Source of the DNA: Candidatus Iainarchaeum sp.
Lineage (GTDB): Archaea > Iainarchaeota > Iainarchaeia > Iainarchaeales > Iainarchaeaceae
DNA: 64,000 nucleotides
Direction of reading: 5' to 3'
NCBI GenBank assembly: GCA_043812975.1
Contig: JBDRLP010000027.1
Coordinates: forward strand, 52,111-116,110
In this document: one piece after another, positions 7,928 to 55,955 of the stretch
Numbering within the stretch: the stretch's first letter is position 1
Layout: each line of letters opens with the position of its first letter
Made by a program: the position numbers and the translations under genes
Notes under the pieces: model-generated
What the model saw: only the letters and a program-made list of their open reading frames with translations
Database searches by the model: none
What the model was told of the DNA's origin: nothing

Positions 7928-7976
7928 AAATTAGAAATCAAATAATTCTATCAATAATAAATTCAGGTTTGAATTC
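7928..7976. repeat. 49-bp direct repeat, copy 1 (duplicate of the ftsY 3' coding end plus stop)
   Basis: Identical to 8705..8753 (aaattagaaatcaaataattctatcaataataaattcaggtttgaattc); encodes ...EFKPEFIIDRII* on the minus strand. Confidence 0.9.
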
Positions 7977-8704: not shown

Positions 8705-8753
8705 AAATTAGAAATCAAATAATTCTATCAATAATAAATTCAGGTTTGAATTC
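8705..8753. repeat. 49-bp direct repeat, copy 2 (the authentic 3' end of ftsY)
   Basis: Identical to 7928..7976; overlaps the last 13 codons and stop of ftsY. Confidence 0.9.
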
Positions 8754-12407: not shown

Positions 12408-13002
12408 TTTCCCCTTTAGGTTGTTCTTTTTTTTCTTTTGGAGCTTCTTTAGCTTCCTGTTTTTTTTCTTTCTGCAATTCTGCATTTTCTTTCTGCACTT
12501 GAGCTTTCTTTTCATCTAATCTTTTTTTCATATTTGCTTCTATCCGATTCATTCTTTCCTGTTTTGCCATTAATTTTTTCTTATTGATTTCATCAACCAC
12601 TTTCTGAACATCTTTTGATTTTGCGTAAAGCAGTTTTTCTCCTAGGCCTGTTACTATTCTTCCTTTCTTATCTTTCTTAAGCAAACCTTGTTTTTCAAGC
12701 TGCTGTAAACATACTCTGATAACTTTTCCTGATGCTTTTCTTTTTGCTTCAGGTTTAACTCCTCTGTTTTTTCTTCCGCCGTAATAGGTTCTAAGGCTTC
12801 CTGTTCCTGTTGAACCGTGTTTATAAATCTGGTAGAGAATGCTTGCGTTTCTCACATAAAACCAATCAGGATTGTTTGGAGTTCTTTCTTTATGCGCCCC
12901 TGTTTTTATATAAGAGAATAGCTCTGGCTGTTGAATTTTGCCTTTTAGTTCTTTGGCAACTTCTTCTATAAGCATTCCTGCCGGCACGTCAAATATACCC
13001 AT
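12373..13002 (-). CDS. rps19e: 30S ribosomal protein S19e with a long Lys/Glu-rich C-terminal extension
   Basis: MGIFDVPAGMLIEEVAKELK...PELFSYIKTGAHKERTPNNPDWFYVRNASILYQIYKHG: S19e core; about 60 residues of K/E-rich tail. Confidence 0.85.
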   Translation of the reverse strand: MGIFDVPAGMLIEEVAKELKGKIQQPELFSYIKTGAHKERTPNNPDWFYVRNASILYQIYKHGSTGTGSLRTYYGGRKNRGVKPEAKRKASGKVIRVCLQQLEKQGLLKKDKKGRIVTGLGEKLLYAKSKDVQKVVDEINKKKLMAKQERMNRIEANMKKRLDEKKAQVQKENAELQKEKKQEAKEAPKEKKEQPKGEKHEPRPEGKKA

Positions 13003-13003
13003 C

Positions 13004-13063
13004 AGCGGACACCTCCGCTGGAGAGGTGTGCTGCCTTCGGCACCACGTACTCACTTACGTTCG
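13004..13063 (+). repeat. GC-rich two-hairpin structured element, family copy E (most divergent)
   Basis: cagcgg-acacct-ccgctg hairpin, gtgctgccttcggcac hairpin, gtactcacttacgttcg tail shared with the other copies. Confidence 0.4.
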
Positions 13064-13189: not shown

Positions 13190-13816
13190 TTATTCCACTA
13201 CTGTCATTTTTACATTATCGAATATTGTCGAATCGGGCCCCCCATAGAATGTTGGAAATAACCAAACTCTTATGCAATTTGCTCCTGCCGGAACAAGGTA
13301 AGTGAACTCTTTATTTTGCCACGTATTATTGGTTGTGACTTCTCCAGCAGTCCCGGAGTTTCCTGCTCCGCAGCTTCTAACCATAACTAATGCTTCTGTT
13401 GGCCCTCCTACAGTTCCTTGTTTATATGAAAAGTTTACTTTTACTGTTTTTCCATATAGTTCATTCAAATCATAATCAGTCAAAATAATCGCCCCGCCTG
13501 ACGATATAGGAATAATTTCAACTGCATAGTTTCCGTATGGAGTATTAGTGCTCTGTACTGCCGTTACACCAGAGAGTAGGTCCCAGTAATCCGGGTAAGT
13601 TGTAAGCGTCCAAGTTTCGAAGCTTGAGTTTTTAAGAAAATTTGTTGAAACTCCTGCGGCTTCTCGTATTTTGTCGAATGCTGTTGTTGCTGATGTTGTG
13701 ACTTGTGTTTCTCCTGTTCCTGCTATGCTTAGTATTAGTGTGATTACGATTACGGCTACGAGTACTGCTCCGCCTATGAGTAGTAGGTATTCTAGTGCTC
13801 CTTGTGCTTTTTGCAT
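13190..13816 (-). CDS. Type IV pilin-like protein (class III signal peptide) with a C-terminal CBM/jelly-roll-like domain, paralog 1
   Basis: N-terminus MQKAQGALEYLLLIGGAVLVAVIVI... (archaeal prepilin K-A-Q-G/ALEYLL motif plus hydrophobic helix); C-terminal beta-rich domain with NSSFETW...W pattern reminiscent of CBM4/9. Confidence 0.7.
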   Translation of the reverse strand: MQKAQGALEYLLLIGGAVLVAVIVITLILSIAGTGETQVTTSATTAFDKIREAAGVSTNFLKNSSFETWTLTTYPDYWDLLSGVTAVQSTNTPYGNYAVEIIPISSGGAIILTDYDLNELYGKTVKVNFSYKQGTVGGPTEALVMVRSCGAGNSGTAGEVTTNNTWQNKEFTYLVPAGANCIRVWLFPTFYGGPDSTIFDNVKMTVVE

Positions 13817-13860
13817 TTGATTTAGAATTGGTTTTTGAATTATTTATTGGTTTGGGTTTT
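13655..13860. repeat. Conserved 5' block (promoter/5'UTR plus first 55 codons) of tandem pilin gene 1
   Basis: Near-identical nucleotide sequence to 14323..14525 and 15078..15280. Confidence 0.85.
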
Positions 13861-13861
13861 G

Positions 13862-14485
13862 TTATGTTTTAACTAATTTTATATCATCAAAATAAACAGT
13901 TCCGTTTGGAATTGTTGAACCTAAATTGTCCCACTTGATTTCCACAGTAATGGTTGCTCCTGCTGCTGTGCAGGTTACAGGCCCAGAACCATCAGTCCAT
14001 ACATTTGGAAAGCTGCTGGTCATCCAGTCCAGAGATCTGTAACCCTCAGTACAGGAATTACTAAAAGCAATGCGTGCACTTCCGCCTATAATATTTGGTT
14101 TGGTCCATCCTGATAAAGCATATGTATCTCCGGCTGTGACATTAAGTGTTTGGGATGCATAACCATAAGAAGAACCCGAACCATCATGAGTCATTTTCAA
14201 AGAACTGTTTCCAGTTCTGCGGTCATCTGTTGAAGAGGAAACACTTATTCCTCCTCCTGTAAGCCAACTACTCAATCCGCTTTCAAAGCTTCCGTTAGCC
14301 AAGAGATTATTGCTACCGCCGCCTGCGGCTTCTCGTATTTTGTCGAATGCTGTTGTTGCTGTTGTTGTTACTTGTGTTTCTCCTGTTCCTGCTATGCTTA
14401 GTATTAGTGTGATTACGATTACGGCTACGAGTACTGCTCCGCCGATTAAGAGTAGGTATTCTAGTGCTCCTTGTGCTTTTTGCAT
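13862..14485 (-). CDS. Type IV pilin-like protein with a C-terminal CBM-like domain, paralog 2
   Basis: Identical N-terminal 55 aa; C-terminal NGSFESG...W...YFDDIKL pattern typical of CBM_4_9-like beta-sandwich domains. Confidence 0.7.
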   Translation of the reverse strand: MQKAQGALEYLLLIGGAVLVAVIVITLILSIAGTGETQVTTTATTAFDKIREAAGGGSNNLLANGSFESGLSSWLTGGGISVSSSTDDRRTGNSSLKMTHDGSGSSYGYASQTLNVTAGDTYALSGWTKPNIIGGSARIAFSNSCTEGYRSLDWMTSSFPNVWTDGSGPVTCTAAGATITVEIKWDNLGSTIPNGTVYFDDIKLVKT

Positions 14486-14525
14486 TTACTTAGAATTGGT
14501 TTTTGGATTATTTATTGGTTTGGAT
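14323..14525. repeat. Conserved 5' block of tandem pilin gene 2
   Basis: Near-identical to the 5' blocks of the neighbouring paralogs. Confidence 0.85.
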
Positions 14526-15239
14526 TTAGGTCTCTGTTACTTTCACATTATCATAATCAATTGTTTGAGCACCGTAACTTAATAGTCCGATTCCGCCTGT
14601 AGCATGTCCTGTAAAATTATCTTCTCCTGCATAAACCCCGTTTACATATAATTTTACGTTTTGTCCTATTACTACCAGTTTTATGCGGTAAGTTGTTCCG
14701 TTAACCCAAGCCGCTCCGGTTATTGGGTCAGTAAGATCCACAATTTGACCAGTACTCCAATCGTAGAGCCTCCAATAATTCCAGGCATAATACCTGTACA
14801 ACAACATCGAGTTTGTGCTTCCTGAAGTATTAGAATTTCTGTAAACTGCGCCCATATAACTTGTTCCTGAAACTGGGGTAAAATCAAATTCAAAAGTATG
14901 ATCGCCATACGATCCTGTGAGATCCTGTGCAAATTTCCAACCGTCTGCTGTTGCAGCATGCCTGAACTTTCCTCCTGTAACACTCCAGATTATATTTGAC
15001 CCAGTAGTGGTCCAAACAGGATTAGATGTGTAATCCCCATCACTGAAATTATCAAAAAAACTTGCCGTTCCTCCCCCTGCGGCTTCTCGTATTTTGTCGA
15101 ATGCTGTTGTTGCTGATGTTGTGACTTGTGTTTCTCCTGTTCCTGCTATGCTTAGGATTAGTGTGATTACGATTACTGCTACGAGTACTGCTCCGCCTAT
15201 GAGTAGTAGGTATTCTAGTGCTCCTTGTGCTTTTTGCAT
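14526..15239 (-). CDS. Type IV pilin-like protein with a C-terminal concanavalin A-like lectin/LamG-like domain, paralog 3
   Basis: Identical N-terminal 55 aa; C-terminal domain resembles LamG/ConA-like lectin folds (YRIKLVVIGQNVKLYVNGVYAGED...IDYDNVKV). Confidence 0.7.
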   Translation of the reverse strand: MQKAQGALEYLLLIGGAVLVAVIVITLILSIAGTGETQVTTSATTAFDKIREAAGGGTASFFDNFSDGDYTSNPVWTTTGSNIIWSVTGGKFRHAATADGWKFAQDLTGSYGDHTFEFDFTPVSGTSYMGAVYRNSNTSGSTNSMLLYRYYAWNYWRLYDWSTGQIVDLTDPITGAAWVNGTTYRIKLVVIGQNVKLYVNGVYAGEDNFTGHATGGIGLLSYGAQTIDYDNVKVTET

Positions 15240-18281: not shown

Positions 18282-18387
18282 TGCGGGCGCCGAGAATCGA
18301 ACTCGGGCCACAACCTTATTGCAAATAATCTTACTTAGTTTCGATTCTTTTTGGCAAGGTTGCGTACTACCGCTATACTACGCCCGC
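18282..18387 (-). tRNA. tRNA-Gly (anticodon GCC) with a roughly 33-nt intron at the canonical 37/38 position
   Basis: Acceptor GCGGGCG/CGCCCGC, anticodon stem CAACC/GGUUG flanking UUGCCA + intron, T arm CCGAG-UUCGAUU-CUCGG; 105 nt in total. Confidence 0.8.
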
Positions 18388-21748: not shown

Positions 21749-22618
21749 TTATAATTCGCTTCCGCCAGTTGTTCTCAAGTATCTTTGATACGCTTCCCAG
21801 ATTTTTATTGCTTCTTCAACAGAGTATTTTTTCGCATTTTTTGATTTTTGGCTTTTAACTGCGGCTTCAATAGCTTCTTCTATTGATTTTCCTGGCTCAT
21901 TTCTTTTAATTATTCTGCCAATTATATCCGCTTCATTAAACGTAAGCCCTGTCCCTTGTTTAACTTCTTCTCTAATAAAGTTTAATGCAATAAAATTTAT
22001 GTTTGTAATTAACCAACCACGTAGTTGTGCTTTTTTTTCAGGATCAAACCTTGCAAATATTGATGCTAATCTTGCATTAACATAACTACTGAAATCCCTT
22101 GTCCTTTCTCCAAAAAAATTGTGCCTCTTACTTGCTTCAAATATTGCTTTTTTAATTATTCCTGTACTTTGTTGCATCAATTGTTCTTGAGCTTTAGTCA
22201 AACGTATTTCTCTATTAATTTTTGGAAGTGTTCCTTCCTTTCTCATTCGATGTTTGTAAGTGCCAACATTAGCGGTGCTGGTTTCAACTCCATTCTCTCT
22301 TAAAATATTTACTATTTCTTCAGGTGTTTTGTTTTGATTGTAAAAAATTGTTCTTCTTATTATTGCATTTCTCGAATTTAATTCATCAGCTTTAATTATT
22401 TTTGGAAGTATTCCGTCTTTTCTCATTTTTGATTTTCTAGTGCCAACAGTTTTGGGAGAAATTCTAATTCCTTGTTTTGCCAGAATAGCTACAATTTGTT
22501 GACGTGTTTTTACTTGATTTCTAGAAATTGTTCTTTTGATTTTGGCTTGTTTTGAATCCAATCTTACTACAGGTTTGGGTTTTGTTTTTGCCATTAAAAG
22601 ATTAGTTATTTGAATCAA
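21749..22618 (-). CDS. Hypothetical protein with two tandem basic HTH-like repeats of about 45 aa
   Basis: Internal repeats RTISRNQVKTRQQIVAILAKQGIRISPKTVGTRKSKMRKDGILPK / RTIFYNQNKTPEEIVNILRENGVETSTANVGTYKHRMRKEGTLPK. Confidence 0.35.
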   Translation of the reverse strand: MIQITNLLMAKTKPKPVVRLDSKQAKIKRTISRNQVKTRQQIVAILAKQGIRISPKTVGTRKSKMRKDGILPKIIKADELNSRNAIIRRTIFYNQNKTPEEIVNILRENGVETSTANVGTYKHRMRKEGTLPKINREIRLTKAQEQLMQQSTGIIKKAIFEASKRHNFFGERTRDFSSYVNARLASIFARFDPEKKAQLRGWLITNINFIALNFIREEVKQGTGLTFNEADIIGRIIKRNEPGKSIEEAIEAAVKSQKSKNAKKYSVEEAIKIWEAYQRYLRTTGGSEL

Positions 22619-23746: not shown

Positions 23747-23788
23747 TTTCTATTTTTAAAAAAAAGAAAATTTAGACAACAACTACAA

Positions 23789-23850
23789 TGCGCCGTCTGC
23801 TCACGGCGGTAGAGCGTCCTGTTTTCAACAGGACTGGCTCACTTCGTTCG
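23789..23850 (+). repeat. GC-rich two-hairpin structured element, family copy D (tRNA-Glu-like 5' two-thirds, no T arm)
   Basis: GCGCCGU-CU-GCUC-ACGGCGGUA-GAGC-G-UCCUG-UUUUCAA-CAGGA-CUGGC then CUCACUUCGUUCGC tail; no T arm or 3' acceptor strand. Confidence 0.45.
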
Positions 23851-29610: not shown

Positions 29611-29961
29611 TTATAGAAGTTTCAGCTCTTTTGTAAACTTATTAATTTCGCTTTCAGGAACAGGACCAATTCCGACTGCTGTTGGTTCTCCGCTTGGAAT
29701 TTGTGTTCTTCCAGCATCTTTAATGAGTGCGGTTGGGAATAAGTTTTTGAGTTTTTCAAACCATTCAAGCAGTTCTTGTTTCGAACCAACTTTAAGCACA
29801 ATTTTTGCCTGTCCCTGGTCCTTCCATTCATCAATCGCTTTTGGGTCTTTTATAAGTGTTTTTTCATAAGCCGACAAAGAAGCATGACTAGATTGACTGG
29901 CAATTTTCCCTTTCCCCATTCCTAAATCACTTCTAATGATTATCACTTGTTTGTATTCCAT
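29611..29961 (-). CDS. pth2: Peptidyl-tRNA hydrolase (archaeal Pth2)
   Basis: KQVIIIRSDLGMGKGKIASQSSHAS... conserved Pth2 N-terminal motif. Confidence 0.85.
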   Translation of the reverse strand: MEYKQVIIIRSDLGMGKGKIASQSSHASLSAYEKTLIKDPKAIDEWKDQGQAKIVLKVGSKQELLEWFEKLKNLFPTALIKDAGRTQIPSGEPTAVGIGPVPESEINKFTKELKLL

Positions 29962-30055
29962 GCAAAAAACAACGCGAACAAAGAATATATTTGTTGCTCT
30001 TGAAGGGAGATGGAAATAGAATGGCGTTGAAGGTCTTGGAATCTTTTATGACTTT

Positions 30056-30316
30056 TTATTTGAAGCTTTTGAACCATTTTTCGTATTCTTTGTGATTTTT
30101 AAAACACCTAATAATGTAAAGTGTCTCTTCTTCAAAATTATAAATGAGTCTTGCTTGTTTTGTTACTTCTTCAACAAAGTAGGGCATACCGTGCTTTAAG
30201 TGTCTTTTGAAGGGGCTTTTGAATATTTTTTCAGCGTGTTTTATGAACTGTTGTCTCAGGGAATTATCTATTTTTTCTAAGTCACTGAGCGCATTCTTAG
30301 TGTAATAAATTTTCAT
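30056..30316 (-). CDS. RelE/ParE-family type II toxin
   Basis: About 86 aa basic protein with a RelE/YoeB-like pattern, immediately downstream (5-bp gap) of a small antitoxin-like gene. Confidence 0.6.
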   Translation of the reverse strand: MKIYYTKNALSDLEKIDNSLRQQFIKHAEKIFKSPFKRHLKHGMPYFVEEVTKQARLIYNFEEETLYIIRCFKNHKEYEKWFKSFK

Positions 30317-30320
30317 TTAA

Positions 30321-30566
30321 TCACAGGCCAAACTTTTTTTTCACTTCCTCGTGCGTAAAAGTTTTTGTTTTGCCTGAGTGGATTCCTGCCATTTCAGCAT
30401 CAATTCCCTTGTTTACAAGAATCACTTCTTCCCTTTCTTTTTCATAAGCCTTTGCTTTTCTTTTCAAATCCAAATACTCCTTTTCAGGAATAGTAACGAT
30501 ATTACTCATACTAACCATTTGTGCATCACTACCAATATAAGAATTACTTTTTCGGTTTAAAAACAA
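30321..30566 (-). CDS. Putative antitoxin (the internal start at 30518 is also possible)
   Basis: Small acidic/charged protein (VTIPEKEYLDLKRKAKAYEKEREE) directly upstream of the RelE-like gene. Confidence 0.5.
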   Translation of the reverse strand: MFLNRKSNSYIGSDAQMVSMSNIVTIPEKEYLDLKRKAKAYEKEREEVILVNKGIDAEMAGIHSGKTKTFTHEEVKKKFGL

Positions 30567-30648
30567 ATTCAGGCATCATTGCCGGTGCGGAGCCATTTTC
30601 CCAAAAAACAGCCCTCTTGGAAACAGCCAATATAAGTCAGTGTTGAAG

Positions 30649-31880: not shown

Positions 31881-31921
31881 TGAAGAAATAAGTCTGCCGT
31901 GGTTTATATAGTTTGCTGTCG

Positions 31922-31990
31922 CCGCAGACCCGCGGCGGTAGGGCGTATTATCTTCGTCCCTTAAGGGGGACTCGATAATACTTGCGTTGT
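31922..31990 (+). repeat. GC-rich two-hairpin structured element, family copy A
   Basis: gccgc-agaccc-gcggc hairpin, GGUAGGGCG linker, 8-bp stem GUAUUAUC/GAUAAUAC enclosing UUCG...hairpin...GGACUC, ACUUGCG tail. Confidence 0.5.
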
Positions 31991-32050
31991 GTAGGAAGTC
32001 TGATCTGTGTATAAAGTCTGATTCTTGTGTAAAAAGCAAAACAAGAACAG
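31985..32050. repeat. Intergenic repeat, copy 1 (agtctgat...tgtgtaaaaagcaaaacaagaaca)
   Basis: Shares ctgtgtaaaaagcaaaacaagaaca with 32715..32775 and a partial copy at 33245..33290. Confidence 0.7.
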
Positions 32051-32131: not shown

Positions 32132-32689
32132 CTATTTCTTTTTGAATGTTAACCACAAAATTACTGGAGGATATGCAATTGCTGAAAGTCCAAAAAGGAG
32201 ATATAAAATAGGTATTAAAGCGCTTGATAGGGAAGGAGAAAAAGAAGTAAATAGAAAAATTACCGGAATAAATCCAATTACAATTAAGGCGATAAATTTC
32301 AGGAATTTTAAGAAAACTGGCCAAAATTTTTCTTTTTGGCTAAATTTGAGCCAACCAAAAGTTAGGATAGGCAATATTATTGAACCTAATAAAAAAAAGA
32401 CGTACAAAAAGGGGGCTATGTCAAGTAATTGGGTTAATGGTCCAAATGAAATCATAAGGGCAATACTAAAGAATAGTATAGTTACAAGAATAGGGCTTAT
32501 TACTTTTACTAAGAGTTGATGTTCAGTTTTTAGTCCGTCTAAAATCTTATTATATAAAAAATAACCAAAAAGAAACATGGAATATACAAAAAGAGGGATT
32601 ATAAAAATAATCCAAATAACGATTACTACAAGTGAATTAAAGGCGCCCCCAAAAGCAACTTGACCTCTTTGTTCATCTAAAATGTTCAT
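32132..32689 (-). CDS. Integral membrane protein, hypothetical
   Basis: 5-6 TM helices. Confidence 0.4.
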   Translation of the reverse strand: MNILDEQRGQVAFGGAFNSLVVIVIWIIFIIPLFVYSMFLFGYFLYNKILDGLKTEHQLLVKVISPILVTILFFSIALMISFGPLTQLLDIAPFLYVFFLLGSIILPILTFGWLKFSQKEKFWPVFLKFLKFIALIVIGFIPVIFLFTSFSPSLSSALIPILYLLFGLSAIAYPPVILWLTFKKK

Positions 32690-32714: not shown

Positions 32715-32775
32715 TTATTTATAATTAATTCGCCGTGTAGAAAGTCTTGATTCTGTGTAAAAAGCAAAACAAGAA
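32715..32775. repeat. Intergenic repeat, copy 2
   Basis: gaaagtcttgattctgtgtaaaaagcaaaacaagaacaa. Confidence 0.7.
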
Positions 32776-32817
32776 CAATAAAACAAGAGTTATAAACTAG
32801 AACAGATTTATATTATT

Positions 32818-34111: not shown

Positions 34112-34146
34112 TTCGCACCGGCAAGAATTTGAGTTCGCACCGGCAA
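34112..34146 (+). promoter_or_regulatory. Tandem TTCGCACCGGCAA motifs (2 copies, 22-bp spacing) upstream of the TATA-like box of nurA
   Basis: ttcgcaccggcaagaatttgagttcgcaccggcaa, then ttaatttaaaaa about 25 bp upstream of the ATG. Confidence 0.5.
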
Positions 34147-34190
34147 CCAACCCTAAGTTAATTTAAAAACCTCGAACCTTTGCTTTTACT

Positions 34191-35276
34191 ATGAATATGT
34201 CTAAAGTGATTGATTCTGCGGTTGAAACAATCCATTCAGGAGAACAAAGAAAAAAACTGGTTACTGAAAAGCTCACTCCGTTAAAATATAAGAAATTTTC
34301 TTCTCAGGAGCTCCCGGAAAAAGTATTGGTTCTTCCTGTTGAAAAGTGGATTCCCGATTGTATAATTGGAGGGGTGGATTCTGGTTTTGTTGCAAAGCGC
34401 CTTGCGTCAGTTGACCTTGTTCTGATTAGAGCTATGGGTGTCTGCTTTGATTACAAAAAGGGCATTGTGGATAAAGCCAATTATTATCCTGGTTATTTTC
34501 AGTTTCCGGAACCACATTTAAGCAATAATGCATTGGAAGAAGATGAGGCTGAGCAAAGCAAATCATTAATGCGTTTAAAAGAAGAAGTTAAAGCGTCAAA
34601 AAAATTAATTGAAGAGCATTCTCCGAAATATTTGTTTATTGATGGTTCTATTGTTCCGCAGTACCAAGACAAACCAAGAAAGGAATCTAAGTTAACTGAT
34701 AATTATATTAATATTATTCAGGAGTTTGAATCTTTTTATGAATTGGCTGAAAAAAATAATTGCACATTAATTTCTACGGTGGAAGATTCTAGAGGTTCTA
34801 GGTTCAGACAGATTATTCAGGATGAAATTCTTGAGAAGGAAAAAATTCTTGAAAAAGAAAAATTAGATGGTTTGTTTGATTCTTCTTTTTTGGATTATTT
34901 TTTGAACGTAGGAGAACGCTCAAGTTGTTTTACTTACACGAAAAATATTAAACAGCATCCTGTTCTTTCTGATTTCAATGAAAAGTGGAGCAACCATATT
35001 TTTGGTTTGTACATTAAACCTTCTAATTATGACAAACCCTTGAGGGTTGAATTCATCACTAAAGGGGGCATAAAAGAAAAAGCAGATGAAGTCGCAAAAG
35101 TCGCGTTTGCTTTAAGTTCATTACATCGCGAGTATGCTTATCCTTCAATTTTAATAGAGGCGGATATGCATGCTAAATTAAAGCAGGATGAGATTGAAAT
35201 TGTTTATAATAAAATAATGGATAAATTGGGTAATTCAATTAAACTAAAAATGAGGCGTGATAATAGGCCTTTTTAG
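34191..35276 (+). CDS. nurA: NurA 5'-3' nuclease (DSB end resection, HerA partner)
   Basis: NurA-domain motifs IGGVDSGF and YLFIDGSIVPQY; HerA is encoded 1.2 kb downstream. Confidence 0.75.
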   Translation: MNMSKVIDSAVETIHSGEQRKKLVTEKLTPLKYKKFSSQELPEKVLVLPVEKWIPDCIIGGVDSGFVAKRLASVDLVLIRAMGVCFDYKKGIVDKANYYPGYFQFPEPHLSNNALEEDEAEQSKSLMRLKEEVKASKKLIEEHSPKYLFIDGSIVPQYQDKPRKESKLTDNYINIIQEFESFYELAEKNNCTLISTVEDSRGSRFRQIIQDEILEKEKILEKEKLDGLFDSSFLDYFLNVGERSSCFTYTKNIKQHPVLSDFNEKWSNHIFGLYIKPSNYDKPLRVEFITKGGIKEKADEVAKVAFALSSLHREYAYPSILIEADMHAKLKQDEIEIVYNKIMDKLGNSIKLKMRRDNRPF

Positions 35277-35801
35277 GTGATTTTCATGGTATTTGAACGT
35301 TTCTCAGAAGTTGATTCAACTGTTTTCAGAAGTTCGATTCCGCGAACAAATGAAGACGTGGATTTTTTGGTTTCTAAAGGGATTTCAGAAGTGATTTCTT
35401 TTGAACTTGTTAATAAATCATTGAGCGCCTATGCGGAATCAAAAGGAGTTAAGTTTCATGATTTTTCAACTATTGATCAGGATTATTTGCCTGATAAGAG
35501 AGAGGCAACTGCGTTTTTCAAAGTAATAAAAAACGCTGAAGTTTCAGGAAAGAAAGTTTTGCTTCATTGCAGTGCGGGTTTGCAGAGGTCTGGTGTGATG
35601 GTTGCTGTTTATTTGGTTGGAAAAGGAATGCATCCACTTCAAGCATACCAATTCGCAGGCACTGCCGAAGTTACAATTAAAGAACCATTGATGCGTGAGG
35701 CGAATGCGTTAAAAGATCTTTACACTAATATTAGAAAAGAGAGGCCTGGTTCAAGAAAATTGAGACATGTTGTAAAAAAACCAAGGAGAAAATTGAAATG
35801 A
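35277..35801 (+). CDS. Dual-specificity/protein-tyrosine phosphatase (CX5R)
   Basis: HCSAGLQRSG catalytic P-loop. Confidence 0.75.
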   Translation: MIFMVFERFSEVDSTVFRSSIPRTNEDVDFLVSKGISEVISFELVNKSLSAYAESKGVKFHDFSTIDQDYLPDKREATAFFKVIKNAEVSGKKVLLHCSAGLQRSGVMVAVYLVGKGMHPLQAYQFAGTAEVTIKEPLMREANALKDLYTNIRKERPGSRKLRHVVKKPRRKLK

Positions 35802-35914
35802 TTTGTCCAAAATGCGGAAATGATTCTTTTGAAGAGCTTCCTTTAGAAAAAGGAAAACAAAAAAGATGCAGAAAGTGCGGTTTTGTGGGAAATCCGATGA
35901 GTGATTTCACGTGA
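35798..35914 (+). CDS. Small zinc-ribbon protein (38 aa)
   Basis: CPKCG...CRKCG double CxxC; overlaps the neighbouring genes (ATGA/GTGA overlaps). Confidence 0.45.
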   Translation: MICPKCGNDSFEELPLEKGKQKRCRKCGFVGNPMSDFT

Positions 35915-36093
35915 CTCAAAAAGAAAAAAATAAAGTAACTTTTTGTTCAAGCTGCGGTTCTACAAATGTAAAACCAAGTTATGCAATGGGAACTATTGAT
36001 AATCGTGTTGAGTGCTTGGATTGTAAAACTTTAGAGTTTCCTGTTGAGGCTGAGGAAAAGTTCAGGAAAAAGTTTATGGAGAGGAAAAAATGA
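35911..36093 (+). CDS. Small zinc-ribbon protein (60 aa, GTG start)
   Basis: CSSCGS...CLDCK zinc ribbon. Confidence 0.45.
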   Translation: MTQKEKNKVTFCSSCGSTNVKPSYAMGTIDNRVECLDCKTLEFPVEAEEKFRKKFMERKK

Positions 36094-36482
36094 GCAGATC
36101 GCCTTTTTATTATGAGCACTCCCCAAAACTATTTTCAGGAAGGATTTCTTTAATAAAATCCGATTTAGATTATTTGAATAGTAAAGGAATCAAAAAATTA
36201 GTCTTATTACAGGATGTGAATGATAATATATTGAATGCTCTTAGAACTGCCGGTTTTGCCGTTAAAGTTTTTCATTTAGGTACAAATCCCCCTTATGATT
36301 CAGAAAAATTAAGAGTGGTTTCTCGCGCTATGGCTTCTGCTAGAGTTTCTTTGCAAAAAAATGAAGGAGTGGCTGTTTTATGCAATCAAGGATTTCGTTC
36401 ATTTGACATTTGTAAAGAAATTCATAATCCTATTGACAGGAAAAGATTAACCAAAACTCGAATTAGGCGGTTGAGAAAATGA
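36090..36482 (+). CDS. Phosphatase-like domain protein (degenerate Cys-based P-loop)
   Basis: VAVLCNQGFRS resembles a CX4-5R phosphatase/rhodanese-like loop; translationally coupled between the Zn-ribbon gene and herA. Confidence 0.35.
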   Translation: MSRSPFYYEHSPKLFSGRISLIKSDLDYLNSKGIKKLVLLQDVNDNILNALRTAGFAVKVFHLGTNPPYDSEKLRVVSRAMASARVSLQKNEGVAVLCNQGFRSFDICKEIHNPIDRKRLTKTRIRRLRK

Positions 36483-39400
36483 CCAAAAACGAAGAAATAG
36501 GAACAGTAATAAGCACTCCAGATGGTCCTTCTCCGAGTGCTTTGGATTTTGTTGTTTATTCAGGAACACTTCACAGAGGAATGTTTGTTGAATTAGATTA
36601 TGCTGAAGGCACTCTTGTTGCTTTGGTTACTGATGTTGTTAAAACAAATCGTTATTTTGAAAGAGTTGAATCAGTAAAGGAATTCGAATCCTCAGGAACA
36701 AAATTATTTGAACAATTCCCTACTCATGAATGGGAATTCCTTTTAGCAAAAACAAGACCGCTTGGAGTTTACAATAAAGGGATGATTAAGCGTTCTAGTT
36801 TTCCTCCTTCTCCTGGGGCTAAAGTAAGGGTTGCTTCCAAAGAAACTCTTGAAAACTTTTTAGGTTTAGATTTGGAAAAAGGTTTAATGCTTGGAGAAAT
36901 TGAACATCACGATGTTTCAGTAAAATTGAACATGTCAAGATTATTCCAGAAACATTTAGCTATTTTGGCTATGAGTGGAGCAGGTAAGTGTACAAGTTTT
37001 GATGCTGAAATATTGCTTGAAAATAAGGTGCAGGTAAAAATTGGCGAATTAGTTGATTCAATATTAGAGAAAAATAAAAGAGTTGAAGATGGTGTTGAAT
37101 TTTGGGAAGGGGATTTGGATCTAAAAACTTATTCTTTTAATGGAGAAAAAATTGTTCCTGCGGAGGTCAAAGGAGTTTACCGAAGGAAGTCTCCGCATGA
37201 ATTGATTAAGGTCACAACTCGGAGTGGTAGGATTTTGAAGGTTACTCCTGAACACTTAATCCCTATGTTTAGTGGTTCTATTGAGTGGTTGCATGCAAAG
37301 GATTTGGTTAAAAAAAACTACTTGATTTTTCCGAGGATAAATTGGAGTGGTTCTGAGCAAGTAATGGATTTTTCTTCAGTTGTTGGCGAGAAAACCATAG
37401 TTCGCGGTGGTTTTGCGGAGTCAAAGAAGTCCGGTAAAAAGGTTAGGTTATTGCAGAGTGTTGACAAGGATTTTGTCAGATTGTTTGCTTATCTTTTGGC
37501 GGAAGGACATAATACTTGCGGTTCTCAAATTTGGTTTAGTAACGAAGATGAGTTTGTACGAAAGGATTTTTCGAAGCTGGTTTTTGATAAGTTTGGTTCT
37601 CGTGTCAGTGTAGCTAAACATGGGGGCGATTTGATTTTTTATAATAAGTTGTTGGCTCAGGCTCTTTCAAAGAAAGGGTTTACTAATTCTAGTTGGACTA
37701 AATTTGTTCCTCCTGAGATTTTGCGGAGCAGACGTGAAGTTTTGCTTTCTTTTCTTTCTGTTTTTATTGATTGTGACGGGCATATAAACAAAAGCAAGTC
37801 TGAGTTGGAGATAACTTTAGCGAGTAAAAAACTTATTTTTGGTATTGAAGAAATCCTCACAAAGCTGGGTATTGTTTCTTTTAGAGGGATCAAAAAGACT
37901 GATGGCAAGGTATATCAAAGATTGTTTGTTAGAGGGGCGGAATTGAAAAAGCTGAAGGATCTCGATCTTTTGATTGGTTATAAAAAGAAGGCTCTTGAGA
38001 AATGGATTGCCTCTAAAAACAACCCTAATGTTGATGTTGTTCCCAATTTACATTCTCATTTGTTTGAGTTGTTGTCTTTGTTGAGAATGCCTCAGCCACA
38101 GGCTGAGTCGTCAGGCATTAACAATTATCTTTACCGCCGAGATAACCCTTCTAGGGAAAATTTGAGTGTTTTAATTTCTATTTTTGAGCGAAGATGTGTT
38201 GAGGTAGAAAAGGCAACTGAGGACGCTTATACTCTTTATAAAAGCATTCCTAAAGTTAGCGAAGAAGATGCTTTAGTGGTTGTTCAGGAAGCTTATTCCA
38301 GTGGTTTGGATTTTAATAAAATCTCTTCAGGAAGTGGTGTTTCAAAAACTACTGCAAGAAGGGTTGTTAGAGGTATCACTTCTCCAAAAAGTAGTGTTTT
38401 TTCTTTGGCAAAAAACATTTCTCAGTCTAGGTATGCTGAATTTGGATTCGTTGAAAACTTCGACGGGAATTCAGCTTTAACTTCTATTAAGGAAATTTGT
38501 GAGAGGCTTGGTCATGAGACACAGACTTTTTGTGTTTCAAATGGGGTTTACAAGAATTTTCTATATTCTCATTCAAAAGATAGGGGTGTTGCTGACCATT
38601 CTATTGTACTCAAGTTGTCAGAGTCTCTTTGTGAAATTGCGAGAAAATCTGAGAAAAATTTGGGCTTAGCTAAGGGAATTATTTTTGATTTGAAGAAAGC
38701 GATTGATTTGAATGCTTTTTTTGACGAGATTGTGAAAGTTGAAAAAGTTCCTTCTGAAAACGAGTTTGTTTATGATCTTTCTGTTGATAATTCTAGTTTT
38801 GTTGCTAATAATTTGTTGATTCATAATAGCTACTTAACTTCCGTTCTCTTTGAAGAACTTTTAGAAAGAAAAAAAGAAGACGGAAGACTGGCTTTGATTG
38901 TAATGGATACTCATGGAGAATATAGGAATTTTGCTGAACCAGTAAAAGATTCAAAGAGTAAAGATTTTTCATCCAAAACAAGATTTGTTAAAGCAAGCGA
39001 AATTAGCATCGGTGTTCCTAAGCTTTCTATCGGAATGCTTTCCATTATGATTCCTGGATTATCAGGGCCGCAGAAGAGAGACCTTGCGAGAGTTCTTGAA
39101 AAATTAAGAAGAGAAATGAAAGACGGTTTAGGCCCCTATGATTTTGGTGCTGTAAAATCTGAAATATTTAAGGATGAGGAAATGAAAGAGTCAACAAAAT
39201 TGGCTTTGACTGGATGGATAATTTCATTAGAACAGTTGAAACTTTTCGGAAAAACTGATAATCCAAGTATTAATGATCTTGTAAAACCAGGACAACTTAC
39301 AATTGTTGATTTGAGTGATGTCATTGAAATGAAAAAGAAACAGATTATTGTTTCTTATTTTGCTTCGAAACTTTTCTTTGAAAGGCGCCAAAAAAGAATT

Positions 39401-39859
39401 GCTCCTTTTTCTCTTGTTTTGGAAGAAGCACATCAGTATTGCCCTGAAGGCACTTCAAAAGAAGGGGCTATTTCCAGAGGTATTATTGAAACAATTGCAA
39501 GGGAAGGAAGAAAGTTCGGTGCTTCAATTTGTTTAATTTCTCAGAGGCCGATTAATCTTTCAACAACTGCATTAAGTCAATGCGGCACTCATATAATTCT
39601 CAGAGTAACAAATCCTTATGATCTTGATCACATTGGTAAAAGCAGTGAAGGTCTTGACAGGCGTTCGCTGGACATGATTACTTCTCTAAGAACGGGAGAA
39701 GCTCTTCTTGTTGGTGAAGCCGTAAATTACCCTACTTTTTTCAAGGTTCGAAAAAGGACTTCTCAGGATTCTATTCATGAAAAGTCTCTGGAGGAGGCTT
39801 CTGTTGAGTTTGAGGAAATAAAGGAAGCATCACAGAAGGATATTGAAGATTTGATGTAA
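36479..39859 (+). CDS. herA: HerA-type hexameric DNA translocase/helicase, interrupted in its Walker A motif by a 613-aa intein
   Basis: HAS-barrel N-terminus; Walker A AILAMSGAGK|C...intein...HN|S; Walker B LVLEEAH; arginine-finger region; the extein is about 513 aa. Confidence 0.85.
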   Translation: MTKNEEIGTVISTPDGPSPSALDFVVYSGTLHRGMFVELDYAEGTLVALVTDVVKTNRYFERVESVKEFESSGTKLFEQFPTHEWEFLLAKTRPLGVYNKGMIKRSSFPPSPGAKVRVASKETLENFLGLDLEKGLMLGEIEHHDVSVKLNMSRLFQKHLAILAMSGAGKCTSFDAEILLENKVQVKIGELVDSILEKNKRVEDGVEFWEGDLDLKTYSFNGEKIVPAEVKGVYRRKSPHELIKVTTRSGRILKVTPEHLIPMFSGSIEWLHAKDLVKKNYLIFPRINWSGSEQVMDFSSVVGEKTIVRGGFAESKKSGKKVRLLQSVDKDFVRLFAYLLAEGHNTCGSQIWFSNEDEFVRKDFSKLVFDKFGSRVSVAKHGGDLIFYNKLLAQALSKKGFTNSSWTKFVPPEILRSRREVLLSFLSVFIDCDGHINKSKSELEITLASKKLIFGIEEILTKLGIVSFRGIKKTDGKVYQRLFVRGAELKKLKDLDLLIGYKKKALEKWIASKNNPNVDVVPNLHSHLFELLSLLRMPQPQAESSGINNYLYRRDNPSRENLSVLISIFERRCVEVEKATEDAYTLYKSIPKVSEEDALVVVQEAYSSGLDFNKISSGSGVSKTTARRVVRGITSPKSSVFSLAKNISQSRYAEFGFVENFDGNSALTSIKEICERLGHETQTFCVSNGVYKNFLYSHSKDRGVADHSIVLKLSESLCEIARKSEKNLGLAKGIIFDLKKAIDLNAFFDEIVKVEKVPSENEFVYDLSVDNSSFVANNLLIHNSYLTSVLFEELLERKKEDGRLALIVMDTHGEYRNFAEPVKDSKSKDFSSKTRFVKASEISIGVPKLSIGMLSIMIPGLSGPQKRDLARVLEKLRREMKDGLGPYDFGAVKSEIFKDEEMKESTKLALTGWIISLEQLKLFGKTDNPSINDLVKPGQLTIVDLSDVIEMKKKQIIVSYFASKLFFERRQKRIAPFSLVLEEAHQYCPEGTSKEGAISRGIIETIAREGRKFGASICLISQRPINLSTTALSQCGTHIILRVTNPYDLDHIGKSSEGLDRRSLDMITSLRTGEALLVGEAVNYPTFFKVRKRTSQDSIHEKSLEEASVEFEEIKEASQKDIEDLM
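36989..38827 (+). mobile_element. Intein (Hint domain plus LAGLIDADG homing endonuclease) inside herA
   Basis: Starts with Cys right after GAGK, ends ...VANNLLIHN followed by Ser; LAGLIDADG-like blocks LFAYLLAEGHN and LSVFIDCDGHIN. Confidence 0.8.
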
Positions 39860-41036: not shown

Positions 41037-41040
41037 AATT

Positions 41041-41075
41041 CCGCACCGGCACGAACTTGGAGTTCGCACCGGCAA
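41041..41075 (+). promoter_or_regulatory. TTCGCACCGGCAA-type motif pair upstream of the gene at 41122
   Basis: ccgcaccggcacgaacttggagttcgcaccggcaa followed by cttaaaaacgctttttaaat TATA-like sequence. Confidence 0.5.
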
Positions 41076-41121
41076 TGTACCCCTTAAAAACGCTTTTTAA
41101 ATCAGAATCGAAAGTTGTAGT

Positions 41122-42618
41122 ATGCTCCATAATACGCGATTATTCCTGAGCAAGGTTAACTATAACTCTGAGAAAAGACAGATTACTGTAGAGTTTTCAA
41201 AGAAAAATCAGAAATCTTCAAAGAAGTACTCATTTTTTCCAAAAATGTATCTTTCTCTGAAAAAAATTTCTGAAAAACATTTACTTGATGCTTTAGCTGA
41301 TTATGATGTAAGAAAATTAAAAATAGATTTTAAAGAAAATACAGCAACTATTTTTGCAGCAACATTTTCTGATTTGAAGAAAGTAAATAATCTTCTGAAT
41401 AATTTTTTTAATTTACATTCAAATTTAATAGAACCTGAAAGGCAATTTCTGCTGGAAAAGAACTGGAGTTATTTTGATTTTTTTGATTTTTCTTATTCAG
41501 AACCCCAACAAATCCACACAACTGAATTTCCTGATGTTTCAATGGACTTCCTTTCAGATTCTTTCAAAGAAACTATTGCTTCTTTATTGTTGAACAACAG
41601 GTCTCTTGCTAAAGAAACAATTGAAAAAATCGTTTTTTCCAAGCTGTTAAGAATTCCTTTAATAGGCCGAGAAGAAGATAAGTCTCTTGAGGAAATTTTT
41701 ATTGAAAATATTTTTTTCCTTAGCGAAAAACCAATTTCTATAGGGGGGTATAGAAACAAATCTTATTTTAGGCAAATCCATAAAAAATCAGTTATAGATT
41801 TTTCAAAAATGGTTTCAGTAATGGCTTCAAAGCCGTTCAATAATCTTGGTTTTGAAACCATTAATTGCAGCTGTTGCAAACCATGGGATAAAGAAGCAAA
41901 AAACATTTTGCCTTCTTCTTTAGTCAAGGTTAATTTTTTGAGGGAAGCTTTTTACTTTGACTCTGTTTCAAGTAACTGGGCTGATGCTTATCATTTTTCT
42001 AATAAGGAAATGCAACAGCGTGAAAAAAGAAAAAGGGAATATTTTTTGGATTTTTATCCTTCAGGCCCGTTTTCAAGAAACTCGTCTGAAAATATACTTT
42101 TAGCTGATGCATTAAATCTTGAACAAAAAGGATTGGTTAAAATAGTTTCTCATGAAAATCCTTCCTGGTTTTGCCTGAAAAAGGAAAGTGCTTTTTCTTC
42201 AGAAGTCAATCGTTTGTATGAATCTCTCATTACTCTTAATTCAGTTGTTGAGAAGGAAAGTAATTCGGTTGTTGCTTCTGCTGGTTTGTTTTTCTCTCAG
42301 TCCCTTGAATCTAGTCCTGGGCATCATTATAGAAAAATTTTAGATAAAACAACTTCTAGGCTTTTAGCTTCTTTTCCAGGGTTGCTTACAAATTCTTCCG
42401 GAAGGTTTTTTGATAAGAATTTTGCAATTGCTTTGGAAGCTATTAATAGCCTTATTTTGAAGGATTTTGAAGAAATTGCCAAAAACTCCAAAACAAGGGT
42501 TACTTTCAAGGATTCTATTGCTTTGGTTGATTCTTCTTCTTTCATGTCTGCCTCTAAAGAGTTCAGAGACCTCTATAAGGTTGACAAACGCTTGTTGAGC
42601 GTCTCCAAAAGCTTTTGA
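41122..42618 (+). CDS. Hypothetical 498-aa protein (no recognisable domain)
   Basis: A long ORF in an AT-rich genome; shares the upstream TTCGCACCGGCAA motif with nurA. Confidence 0.4.
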   Translation: MLHNTRLFLSKVNYNSEKRQITVEFSKKNQKSSKKYSFFPKMYLSLKKISEKHLLDALADYDVRKLKIDFKENTATIFAATFSDLKKVNNLLNNFFNLHSNLIEPERQFLLEKNWSYFDFFDFSYSEPQQIHTTEFPDVSMDFLSDSFKETIASLLLNNRSLAKETIEKIVFSKLLRIPLIGREEDKSLEEIFIENIFFLSEKPISIGGYRNKSYFRQIHKKSVIDFSKMVSVMASKPFNNLGFETINCSCCKPWDKEAKNILPSSLVKVNFLREAFYFDSVSSNWADAYHFSNKEMQQREKRKREYFLDFYPSGPFSRNSSENILLADALNLEQKGLVKIVSHENPSWFCLKKESAFSSEVNRLYESLITLNSVVEKESNSVVASAGLFFSQSLESSPGHHYRKILDKTTSRLLASFPGLLTNSSGRFFDKNFAIALEAINSLILKDFEEIAKNSKTRVTFKDSIALVDSSSFMSASKEFRDLYKVDKRLLSVSKSF

Positions 42619-45552: not shown

Positions 45553-45592
45553 CTATGATTCATTCCCCAGTTAGCTTTAAAAAGGTTGATTT

Positions 45593-45660
45593 CCCCGCCT
45601 GCTTGCGGGGGTAAAGCGTTCTATCTTCGTTTGGACTCGATAGAACTTGTTCGCACTGGC
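45593..45660 (+). repeat. GC-rich two-hairpin structured element, family copy B (its tail carries the TTCGCACTGGCAA motif)
   Basis: ccccgc-ctgctt-gcgggg hairpin, GUAAAGCG linker, 8-bp stem GUUCUAUC/GAUAGAAC enclosing UUCGUUUGGACUC, tail cttgttcgcactggcaatg. Confidence 0.5.
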
Positions 45661-45724
45661 AATGAGGTCTCGAAACTATTTAAAGCAAATATATTTATAC
45701 ATTCATAGAGGTATAATTGTGAGT

Positions 45725-45934
45725 ATGGTTGCTAGTGATTCTTTTAAGACTTATGAATTCTATGCAAATGCTGATTTATCTAAGTATGCCGGTCAGTGGG
45801 TTGCAATAGTTAATAATAAAGTTATAGCCCATGGCAAAGATGTAAAGAAATTATTGAAAGAAGCAGAAAAAGAAGCTCCAAAAATCACTCCGTTTATAGC
45901 AAAAGTGCCTCTTAGAGATATTCTTCTCTGGTAA
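45725..45934 (+). CDS. Small hypothetical protein (ORF opens at 45647)
   Basis: Start taken at MVASDSF, downstream of the TATA-like tatttaaagc; adjacent to the retropepsin-like gene. Confidence 0.35.
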   Translation: MVASDSFKTYEFYANADLSKYAGQWVAIVNNKVIAHGKDVKKLLKEAEKEAPKITPFIAKVPLRDILLW

Positions 45935-46351
45935 TTGCACATGTCTTTCACTTTTAAATACAGAAAAGAGAAAATCGAAGGAAAAATTAGATATTTCCCA
46001 AAAGTTGTTATCAGTCTTTACAATAAAGGTATCAAATTTGATTATCCTGCATTAATTGATTCCGGAGCAACTGATATTTTTGTCCCAAAACAGATTGCTG
46101 AAGCACTCGAGCTTGATTTTAAAGAAGAAGATATTGCCAGCAGTTGGAATGGTGATTTTAAGGTTTGGGGTTCTAATATAGGAGTTATTTTGGGCAAAGG
46201 AAGCCAGACCTTCAGAAGAGTTTTGCCATGCCTTATTCCTGATAGTGAAAATCCCAATCAAGAAGTAATTTTAGGCAGAGTATTATTCAAGTTCTTTGAG
46301 GTTACATTTAACGAACAAAAAAGAATTACAAAACTCAAAAAAATACAATAA
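45935..46351 (+). CDS. Retropepsin-like (clan AA) aspartic protease
   Basis: ALIDSGATDIFVP: D-S/T-G-A catalytic motif in a roughly 135-aa protein, consistent with a homodimeric retropepsin-like fold. Confidence 0.6.
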   Translation: MHMSFTFKYRKEKIEGKIRYFPKVVISLYNKGIKFDYPALIDSGATDIFVPKQIAEALELDFKEEDIASSWNGDFKVWGSNIGVILGKGSQTFRRVLPCLIPDSENPNQEVILGRVLFKFFEVTFNEQKRITKLKKIQ

Positions 46352-53112: not shown

Positions 53113-53418
53113 ATGACTAAAGCAGCAGAACAAGAATTTGTGAGTTATGTGCAAAACTATCCTGAATGCTATGCTATTGCACAATCTGAGATGTTCATGA
53201 AATTTTTAAATTTCATTTCAGAGGCTCCTAGGTCGGTTTCTGAGCTTTTAACGAATATTCCAAATATTGAGGATTTTGATTTAAGGCTTATTGTTCTTGC
53301 TTTAGAATCAGCAAAACTCATTAAAAGAAGCAGAAATATTCAATCCGAGGTTTATTATCTCACTAATAAGGGAAAAACTCTTATAACTAAATATAAAAAG
53401 GCAAAAAAAGGTCTTTAA
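53113..53418 (+). CDS. Winged-helix-like small protein, hypothetical
   Basis: Weak wHTH pattern. Confidence 0.3.
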   Translation: MTKAAEQEFVSYVQNYPECYAIAQSEMFMKFLNFISEAPRSVSELLTNIPNIEDFDLRLIVLALESAKLIKRSRNIQSEVYYLTNKGKTLITKYKKAKKGL

Positions 53419-55886: not shown

Positions 55887-55955
55887 GCGGCTGTGGACGC
55901 CCTTCGGGCGGCGTACTATCTTTGCCTTTAGAAGGCTCGATAGTACTTACGAGAG
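55887..55955 (+). repeat. GC-rich two-hairpin structured element, family copy C
   Basis: cgcc-cttcg-ggcg hairpin, 8-bp stem GUACUAUC/GAUAGUAC enclosing UUUG-gccuu-uag-aaggc-UC, tail ttacgagag. Confidence 0.5.

Follow-up and report, generated by a model that had tools for sequence, protein, structure and literature searches.

Four promoters in a 64,000-nt stretch of DNA from Candidatus Iainarchaeum sp. (GenBank assembly GCA_043812975.1, contig JBDRLP010000027.1, positions 52,111 to 116,110 of the forward strand; this whole stretch is hereafter called the window, and coordinates are counted from its first letter) share a 13-nt motif, T[TC]CGCAC[CT]GGCA[AC]. We consider this 13-mer to be probably a clade-conserved cis-regulatory element of Diapherotrites promoters, and most likely the predicted binding site of a transcription factor (TF) that serves a small double-strand-break (DSB) repair regulon. 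The motif does not occur at random: it stands close to promoters in a fixed orientation, orthologous promoters share it, and within individual genomes its variants change in concert. To our knowledge gene regulation in DPANN archaea is almost unexplored, with no DNA-repair regulon defined by a known promoter word, and we know of no characterised regulator in Diapherotrites. A literature search found no published description of the motif. The evidence laid out below supports the presence of an archaeal promoter-upstream regulatory site in a lineage for which none has been described.

The 13-mer at promoters of the window and its relatives

Searching the window (GC content 34%) with the pattern TTCGCACYGGCAA returned five matches with at most one mismatch against 0.08 expected, and none of 100 shuffled sequences yielded five or more. 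Adding a copy with two mismatches at 41040 gives a total of six copies at four promoters; at three mismatches the 15 matches obtained, against 18.6 expected, represent background. In a weight-matrix scan these six sites score 20.5-26.6 bits and nothing in the window scores between 10 and 20 bits, which indicates that the motif set is discrete. About 89% of the window is coding, all six copies fall within the 11% that is non-coding, and each is co-oriented with the gene downstream. Copy A (TCCGCACCGGCAA, 26.6 bits) is on the minus strand at 30579-30591, upstream of antitoxin-like, ParE-like and pth2 genes, and the others are on the plus strand. The nurA promoter bears a tandem pair, comprised of a distal copy B1 (34112-34124) and a proximal copy B2 (34134-34146), both reading TTCGCACCGGCAA, with B2 covering positions -57 to -45 from the ATG. 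A comparable pair, the distal C1 (TCCGCACCGGCAC, 41040-41052) and the proximal C2 (TTCGCACCGGCAA, 41063-41075), precedes the gene for a 498-aa PolB-like protein, and the single copy D (TTCGCACTGGCAA, 45650-45662) lies upstream of a DUF5678/retropepsin-like gene pair. The tandem period is 22 bp for B1/B2 and 23 bp for C1/C2; with no more than two copies per locus at this distance, the arrangement differs from a CRISPR or other tandem array of three or more regular repeats. The conserved sequence can be extended to a consensus of about 20 nt, TYCGCACCGGCAA-yGAr-sCC, of which CACCGGCA is a segment, and inspection of the 13-mer revealed neither a palindrome nor dyad symmetry.

The copies are also strongly constrained in their position relative to the core promoter. 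In the window the 3' end of the proximal copies is 15-19 nt upstream of a TTTAAA-type box, and across the clade the corresponding distance to a TATA-like hexamer is 12-21 nt; the distal tandem copies are 37-42 nt from the box. By archaeal promoter geometry these boxes appear to be true TATA boxes of mostly leaderless transcripts, because the spacing between TATA-like hexamer and ATG peaks at 27-30 nt across all window genes with an upstream gap. Measured from the start of the box, nurA and the 498-aa gene show this same spacing of 27-30 nt, and the genes behind copies A and D show one of 44-46 nt, with a GGTGA/GAGGT-like stretch preceding the ATG. The 5' end of the proximal copy is accordingly 57-61 nt from the ATG in leaderless genes and 71-78 nt in genes with a leader. 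The nurA TATA box (TTTAAAAA, 34162-34169, plus strand) has its ATG 29 nt downstream, a leaderless architecture, and that of the 498-aa gene (TTTTTAAA) is found at 41094-41101 on the same strand. The box of the copy A promoter, likewise TTTTTAAA, lies 15 nt 3' of the motif at 30563-30556 on the minus strand, and a TTTAAA at 45679-45684 on the plus strand follows copy D by 16 nt. Only four of the window's roughly 63 candidate promoters have the motif, and hence it is not a general promoter element.

An initial annotation of the window had described the word as TTCGCAC(C/T)GGCAA and placed it at 34112, 34134, 41041, 41063 and 45649. The copies that it listed are borne out, as are the sequence contexts it quoted for the 41040/41063 and 45650 sites, but it overlooked the copy A promoter at 30579-30591. 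Three of its coordinates (34112, 34134 and 41063) are right and the other two are off by one, the correct starts being 41040 and 45650. Its consensus is not exact at 41040, where two positions deviate.

To follow the motif beyond the window we used loci L119-L138 from about a dozen related genomes of 30-51% GC, which were gathered by a metagenome scan with NurA and by context look-ups of homologs of the 498-aa protein. Gene order is kept across these loci: alaX/pth2, followed further on by nurA and herA, a membrane protein gene, the 498-aa gene, rpoK, S17e, rad50 on the opposite strand, aEF-1beta, aS21, a variable region and the gene for the CCA enzyme. Among the non-redundant sites scoring at least 17.5 bits in about 345 kb of clade DNA, 27 of 27 are of promoter type and none is coding; matches below 16 bits are mostly coding or due to chance, chiefly in GC-rich loci. 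The random scatter, coding DNA included, that the initial annotation had named as telling against its proposal is not seen in this mostly syntenic clade DNA. The nurA genes of the window, L121, L127, L119/120/128, L123, L122/130, L124, L132 and L134 are all preceded by the motif core, and at the promoter of the 498-aa gene it is kept in L127, L128/129, L130, L132 and L134; overall it is conserved at nurA orthologs in about ten genomes and at orthologs of the 498-aa gene in at least six. Conservation upstream of nurA in relatives is what the initial annotation had put forward as a check of its proposal.

The distance from the 5' end of the motif to the ATG is 57-58 nt in the nurA promoters. When ten of these, spanning the full range of GC content, were aligned, conservation was confined to C.ACCGGCA, the TATA box, a CTCGAA box and the ATG, with none upstream of the motif. 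The CTCGAA box, found at 34171-34176 on the plus strand of the window directly 3' of the nurA TATA box and conserved in the nurA promoters of 10 genomes (alignment A6), may be a second, nurA-specific regulatory site. At the 498-aa gene a change of neighbor is informative: the gene 5' of it encodes a Na/Ca exchanger in the window and a DedA-like protein in L119/L128, yet the motif is still there, which implies that it travels with the downstream gene. Neither L121 nor L127, the closest relatives, has the distal copies B1 and C1; the second, tandem copies are lineage-specific.

In more distant genomes the motif changes in a concerted manner. In L136 (30% GC), whose ortholog of the 498-aa protein is 32% identical, there are four ACCGGCA copies in 21 kb, where 0.42 would be expected, each 14-16 nt upstream of a TATA box, and these copies precede nurA, herA, the 498-aa gene and rad50. 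Here herA has its own promoter, so that the L136 variant is found upstream of a separate herA as well. Similarly, in L137 a variant GCACTGGACAyCTACCC precedes both the 498-aa gene and an operon comprised of ribbon-helix-helix (RHH), ParE and nurA genes. Variants that change together within one genome are predicted by co-evolution of a regulator with its sites, and are hard to explain by chance or as a passive remnant. At rad50 promoters the motif was found in L136 only, L132 and L134 having at best a GGCAC half-word. In the window itself there is no copy at the genes for Rad50, Hjc, DnaG and an RPA-like protein. A search of a collection of genome contigs with the degenerate tandem pattern gave, among the matches listed, only chance ones in high-GC bacteria. 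Looked up as exact sequences, NurA and the 498-aa protein of the window, as well as P0069, gave no match.

A predicted regulon around double-strand-break repair

A TF site would be expected to appear as one specific motif at several promoters above chance, with narrow limits on where and in which direction it lies with respect to the core promoter, and as a phylogenetic footprint at orthologous promoters whose flanks have diverged; each of these properties was observed for the 13-mer. From them we infer that a protein binds the motif, and the identity of this factor, the direction in which it regulates and the signal that induces it are proposed here by the same reasoning. A sequence-specific factor would bind the 13-mer, which spans about -57 to -45 relative to the start of transcription and lies just 5' of the TFB-recognition element (BRE), and the bound factor would probably help recruit TBP/TFB and so be an activator, repression being less likely. 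The signal would presumably be DNA damage or stress, and at the tandem copies, which at 22-23 bp are about two helical turns apart, two molecules could be bound on the same face of the DNA. Archaeal sites situated directly upstream of BRE/TATA, such as those of Ptr2, upstream TrmBL1, EarA and the ARA box, mediate activation via TBP/TFB recruitment, and repressor sites usually overlap the TATA box, the BRE or the start site. Given that the 13-mer is asymmetric, oriented and directly upstream of BRE/TATA, an activating factor is favored over a classical operator. The label of operator that had been applied to it is therefore apt for a cis-regulatory site, but the position fits an activator-type site better.

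In this respect the 13-mer resembles known archaeal upstream activator sites, namely those of Ptr2 in Methanocaldococcus, the upstream TrmBL1 sites (TGM), EarA at the fla operon and the ARA box of Sulfolobus: it too is a short word directly upstream of BRE/TATA, confined to a subset of promoters, constrained in orientation and distance, defining a regulon and sometimes present as two copies about two helical turns apart. Its sequence is unrelated to theirs and non-palindromic, its targets are DSB-repair and toxin-antitoxin-like genes, and for it activation is only predicted. The other point of comparison is provided by DNA-damage regulons with a shared promoter word, such as the bacterial LexA/SOS box and the Sulfolobus Orc1-2 damage-response motif. 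As in these, one word ties together dispersed repair and polymerase genes, and as in SOS regulons the targets include toxin-antitoxin modules. Unlike the LexA/SOS system, there is no LexA homolog or palindromic box, the 13-mer does not overlie the core promoter but is situated 5' of the TATA box, and its induction by damage is our conjecture.

The core of the regulon is most likely nurA(-herA) together with the 498-aa gene, with two-gene modules in variable hotspots as accessory members; in the distant relative L136 it most likely includes the separate herA and rad50 promoters too. The presence of the L136 variant core at nurA, herA, rad50 and the 498-aa gene makes the link to DSB repair stronger. 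In the window the nurA...herA block (34191-39859, plus strand; Pfam NurA, and HerA/DUF87 with an intein) is tightly packed, in the order nurA, a protein-tyrosine-phosphatase (PTP)-like phosphatase, two small Zn-ribbon open reading frames (ORFs), a second PTP-like ORF and herA, and presumably constitutes one operon. The 498-aa gene occupies 41122-42618 on the plus strand, and copy D is followed on that strand by a DUF5678 gene (45725-45934) and a retropepsin-like aspartyl protease gene (45935-46351), both identified by Pfam. Behind copy A, on the minus strand, are genes for a 65-aa antitoxin-like protein (30321-30518) and Pth2 (29611-29961), each with a Pfam match, and for a ParE-like toxin (30056-30316), with a Pfam match under the curated cut-off. 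A regulon tying nurA/herA to the 498-aa gene and the retropepsin-like protease had already been suggested in the initial annotation, and is supported by the conserved promoters, the fixed TATA spacing and the diverged upstream flanks; the targets listed there remain, and the promoter of the toxin-antitoxin pair and pth2 has to be added to them.

No Pfam domain was detected by a Pfam scan in the 498-aa protein, which the initial annotation had called unknown; it is not featureless, as a PolB-like fold is predicted for it. Its family is comprised of 68 homologs of about 500 aa, and all the named sources (Candidatus Diapherotrites, ainarchaeum and archaeon GW2011_AR21) are from this clade, which places the window itself among the Diapherotrites of the DPANN archaea. 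An AlphaFold model (39 sequences) reached a predicted local distance difference test score of 88.9 and a predicted template modelling (TM) score of 0.89, and its top Foldseek matches among solved structures are PolB enzymes, i.e. E. coli Pol II and the Thermococcus and Pyrococcus PolBs (E ~1e-7, probability 1.0, TM-score 0.43-0.48, about 10% identity). A profile search aligned the C-terminal part with the motif B/C region of Pol II, at an E-value of 0.28 that is not significant alone. The model thus indicates that the protein is a shrunken version of the family-B DNA polymerase fold, belonging to a family confined to Diapherotrites. The aspartates of YGDTDS (motif C) are apparently not conserved, and the polymerase site may be inactive.

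The accessory members occur in two variable regions. Between alaX and pth2 a different toxin-antitoxin pair is found in each genome, each behind a motif-bearing promoter, with the motif at the site syntenic to copy A in L119/L128, L127 and L132. This hotspot holds the antitoxin-like and ParE-like genes in the window (29611-30648), two copies of the window's antitoxin family in L127 (30-1080), MazE and PIN genes in L119/L128 (L128 2865-3884), and RHH and PemK genes in L132 (1790-2958), where the motif has the variant form CCGCACCAGCAA. The other hotspot, between aS21 and the tRNA-Arg/CCA enzyme genes, has the DUF5678 and retropepsin-like genes in both the window and L127, which also keeps the copy D site, and in L132 an unrelated 257-aa ORF behind CTCGCATCGGCAA. 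It would appear that the response which includes the repair genes also takes in accessory modules of toxin-antitoxin type. At the level of the regulon as a whole, the motif predicts co-regulation of NurA, HerA, a miniaturised PolB-like protein and, in one relative, Rad50, and it offers a bait sequence for finding the regulator.

Candidates for this regulator are positional or generic: the two Zn-ribbon ORFs in the nurA-herA operon, a 101-aa winged helix-turn-helix (wHTH) protein (53113-53418) and a 281-aa protein on the minus strand (21749-22594) with two tandem ArgR-N-like wHTH repeats. The repeats of the latter are visible as DNA repeats at 22210-22562 and it also has a weak sigma-70 region-2-like match, an unusual DNA-binding architecture. 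The Zn-ribbon ORFs encode CxxC...CxxC proteins of about 38 and 60 aa at approximately 35802-35918 and 35911-36093, between nurA and herA. Homologs of the 60-aa protein are encoded at the same position in L127, L119/L128, L132 and L138, and the coding sequence of the ~38-aa protein is recognisable in L127 and L119; by position the two are candidates for either a regulator or a repair accessory protein. Searched with Pfam for a conserved regulator in the vicinity, the region returned wHTH and Zn-ribbon matches, all of them below threshold.

Several observations weigh against the proposed TF site. The distribution of the motif rests on those 345 kb or so of partly redundant, mostly syntenic clade DNA rather than on complete genomes, and no copy of it can be recognised in L125 and L138. 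The gap between motif and TATA box is 15 nt at nurA and 20-22 nt at the 498-aa gene, a difference of half a helical turn that is odd for strict recruitment from one face of the helix. The set of targets is mixed, including toxin-antitoxin pairs, pth2 and a retropepsin-like protease beside the repair genes. Most characterised archaeal factor sites are palindromic, and this one is not. Finally, structured-repeat biology could shape part of the motif distribution, since some copies adjoin the repeat element described below.

The structured element and the rival explanations

Directly upstream of copy D are two hairpins that belong to a dispersed structured element. A covariance model built from four elements finds eight copies, of which five are in the window (13000-13048, 23788-23836, 31917-31983, 45590-45648 and 55892-55948), two in L132 (4606-4666 and 11509-11563) and one in L128 (2749-2821). 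All eight are on the plus strand, regardless of the orientation of the neighboring genes, and the copy at 45590-45648 (74.7 bits) abuts copy D. By this model the element is absent from L127, L130 and L134, making its distribution patchy between related genomes, and at the D site of L127 a decayed remnant stands beside an intact 13-mer. The element is about 60 nt long and is comprised of a GC-rich hairpin, whose loop pairs with the GGUAnnGCG linker that follows to form a pseudoknot, and a second hairpin of the form ACUAUC-UUY-[variable stem]-UC-GAUAGU. For the two hairpins and the pseudoknot 95% of cells are paired, as against 35-45% in slid controls, and compensatory changes are seen in 14 of 20 pairs. 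A search with Rfam 15 brought only tRNAs to the gathering score, and nothing meaningful at E-values up to 10 around the motif or the elements. A tRNA-derived origin was considered because the copy at 23788 has a stem-loop after a GGUAGAGCG segment, but the Rfam tRNA model lends it no support, and nor does ARAGORN.

It had been claimed that the 13-mer forms the 3' tail of this element family. This holds for one of the five window copies and two of the eight overall, a proportion far in excess of the 0.9% or so of random intergenic stretches, and the other six elements are without it. One of the two is the L132 element in the nurA promoter, which has the 13-mer on both sides. Moreover, the spacers of the tandem pairs, GAATTTGAG (34125-34133) and GAACTTGGAG (41053-41062), match the 3' end of the element at D, GAACTTG, and structured elements are the probable source of this genome's tandem copies. 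These connections recall repeats of the miniature inverted-repeat transposable element (MITE) and repetitive extragenic palindromic (REP) type: a structured intergenic repeat lies beside some motif copies, in one case between two of them, and the tandem motif pairs resemble element footprints. Unlike such repeats, the compensatory changes, including those in the pseudoknot, indicate selection on the structure of the element, terminal inverted repeats are lacking and no transposase gene lies nearby; besides, most of the motifs are solitary and anciently conserved.

It is thus conceivable, though in our estimation rather unlikely, that the 13-mer is primarily an insertion target, an attachment site or a terminal part of the structured element, and that its promoter copies are scars or duplications. 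The flanked L132 element and the one abutting copy D, the shared spacers, the excess of true 13-mers beside elements, the absence of the distal copies from the closest relatives and the patchy distribution of the element, with all copies on one strand, all point in this direction. Yet there is no element near more than 20 of the 27 sites, six of the eight elements lack a significant 13-mer at their 3' flank, and a solitary 13-mer at a fixed distance from the TATA box across genomes with 32-50% protein identity requires selection at the level of the host. Nor does this account for the concerted variants at several promoters in L136 and L137, and a clean 22-bp insertion for the distal nurA copy is not demonstrable, as the upstream flanks of the window and L121 are too diverged to define one. 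We would give similarly low odds to the 13-mer and the element being a single system, either a mobile or RNA-encoding module homing to promoters with the 13-mer or its bound factor, or a scaffold RNA with a promoter-word tail; if true, this would mean that membership of a DNA-repair regulon is being rewired in a genome-reduced DPANN lineage, with tandem 13-mers as footprints of the element. A related but far less probable notion is that a small structured RNA has the transcribed 13-mer as its 3' tail, the word then exerting its effect as RNA. Its position directly 3' of the elements at 45590-45648 and in L132, and the plus-strand covariation that supports the structure, would suit such a tail, but most copies have no upstream element, they lie upstream of the TATA box of the gene that follows and so outside its transcript, and the other six elements have tails of unrelated sequence. 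We regard the 13-mer as a word of old promoter function kept by selection in the host, one that the structured element tends to adjoin.

Among explanations that keep the motif in the promoter, it could be a core-promoter element, for instance a longer or variant BRE that a paralogous TFB/TBP recognises, as its fixed orientation, near-fixed TATA distance and discrete promoter subset might suggest. However, the BRE abuts the TATA box in archaeal promoters, and here the gap is 12-21 nt and varies by gene (15 versus 20-22 nt), with the distal tandem copies further removed still, which makes this explanation improbable. Even less credible is an origin recognition box (ORB)- or mini-ORB-like site for Orc1/Cdc6, marking an origin or Orc1-type regulation. 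Like ORB/mini-ORB elements (PMC1904270) the 13-mer is an asymmetric 13-bp word with a loosely similar TTC...AA outline, starting with TTC or TCC and ending in AA. Replication and repair genes are among its targets, gene orientation diverges in the region and the cumulative GC skew has its minimum near 32-34 kb. Against this, the TTCC and GAA cores that are perfectly conserved in the Pyrococcus ORB/mini-ORB (PMC1904270) are missing from TYCGCACCGGCAA. The copies are not clustered as at an origin; they are spread over 30.6-45.7 kb, with one promoter at each place and no AT-rich unwinding region, and every one of them is positioned relative to a TATA box. The nurA intergenic region measures only 117 bp, and there is no orc1/cdc6 among the window ORFs scanned. 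An ORB identity was accordingly rejected on the core motifs and the arrangement, leaving the predicted TF site as the preferred explanation of the 13-mer.

Other features of the window

The gene content of the window is archaeal, including an intron-bearing tRNA, NurA, an intein-containing HerA, Hjc, DnaG, RpoK and aEF-1beta. HerA (36479-39859) is split by an intein with a LAGLIDADG domain, which is present in L130, L132, L134 and L137 and absent from L119/L128, L136 and L138. The tRNA gene, 106 nt long at 18282-18387 on the minus strand, was found by the Rfam tRNA model and not by ARAGORN, and presumably bears an intron.

The window also contains several repeats distinct from the 13-mer. A perfect 49-nt direct repeat (7928-7976 and 8705-8753) flanks a 230-aa gene at 7975-8667 on the minus strand and may mark a recent duplication or an inserted cassette. 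At 32007-32049 and 32735-32777 an intergenic 43-nt repeat, 86% identical, flanks a membrane-protein gene (32132-32689, minus strand). At 13190-15239 are three tandem paralogs with archaeal pilin-type signal sequences, which appear at the DNA level as 212-nt repeats with 86-94% identity.

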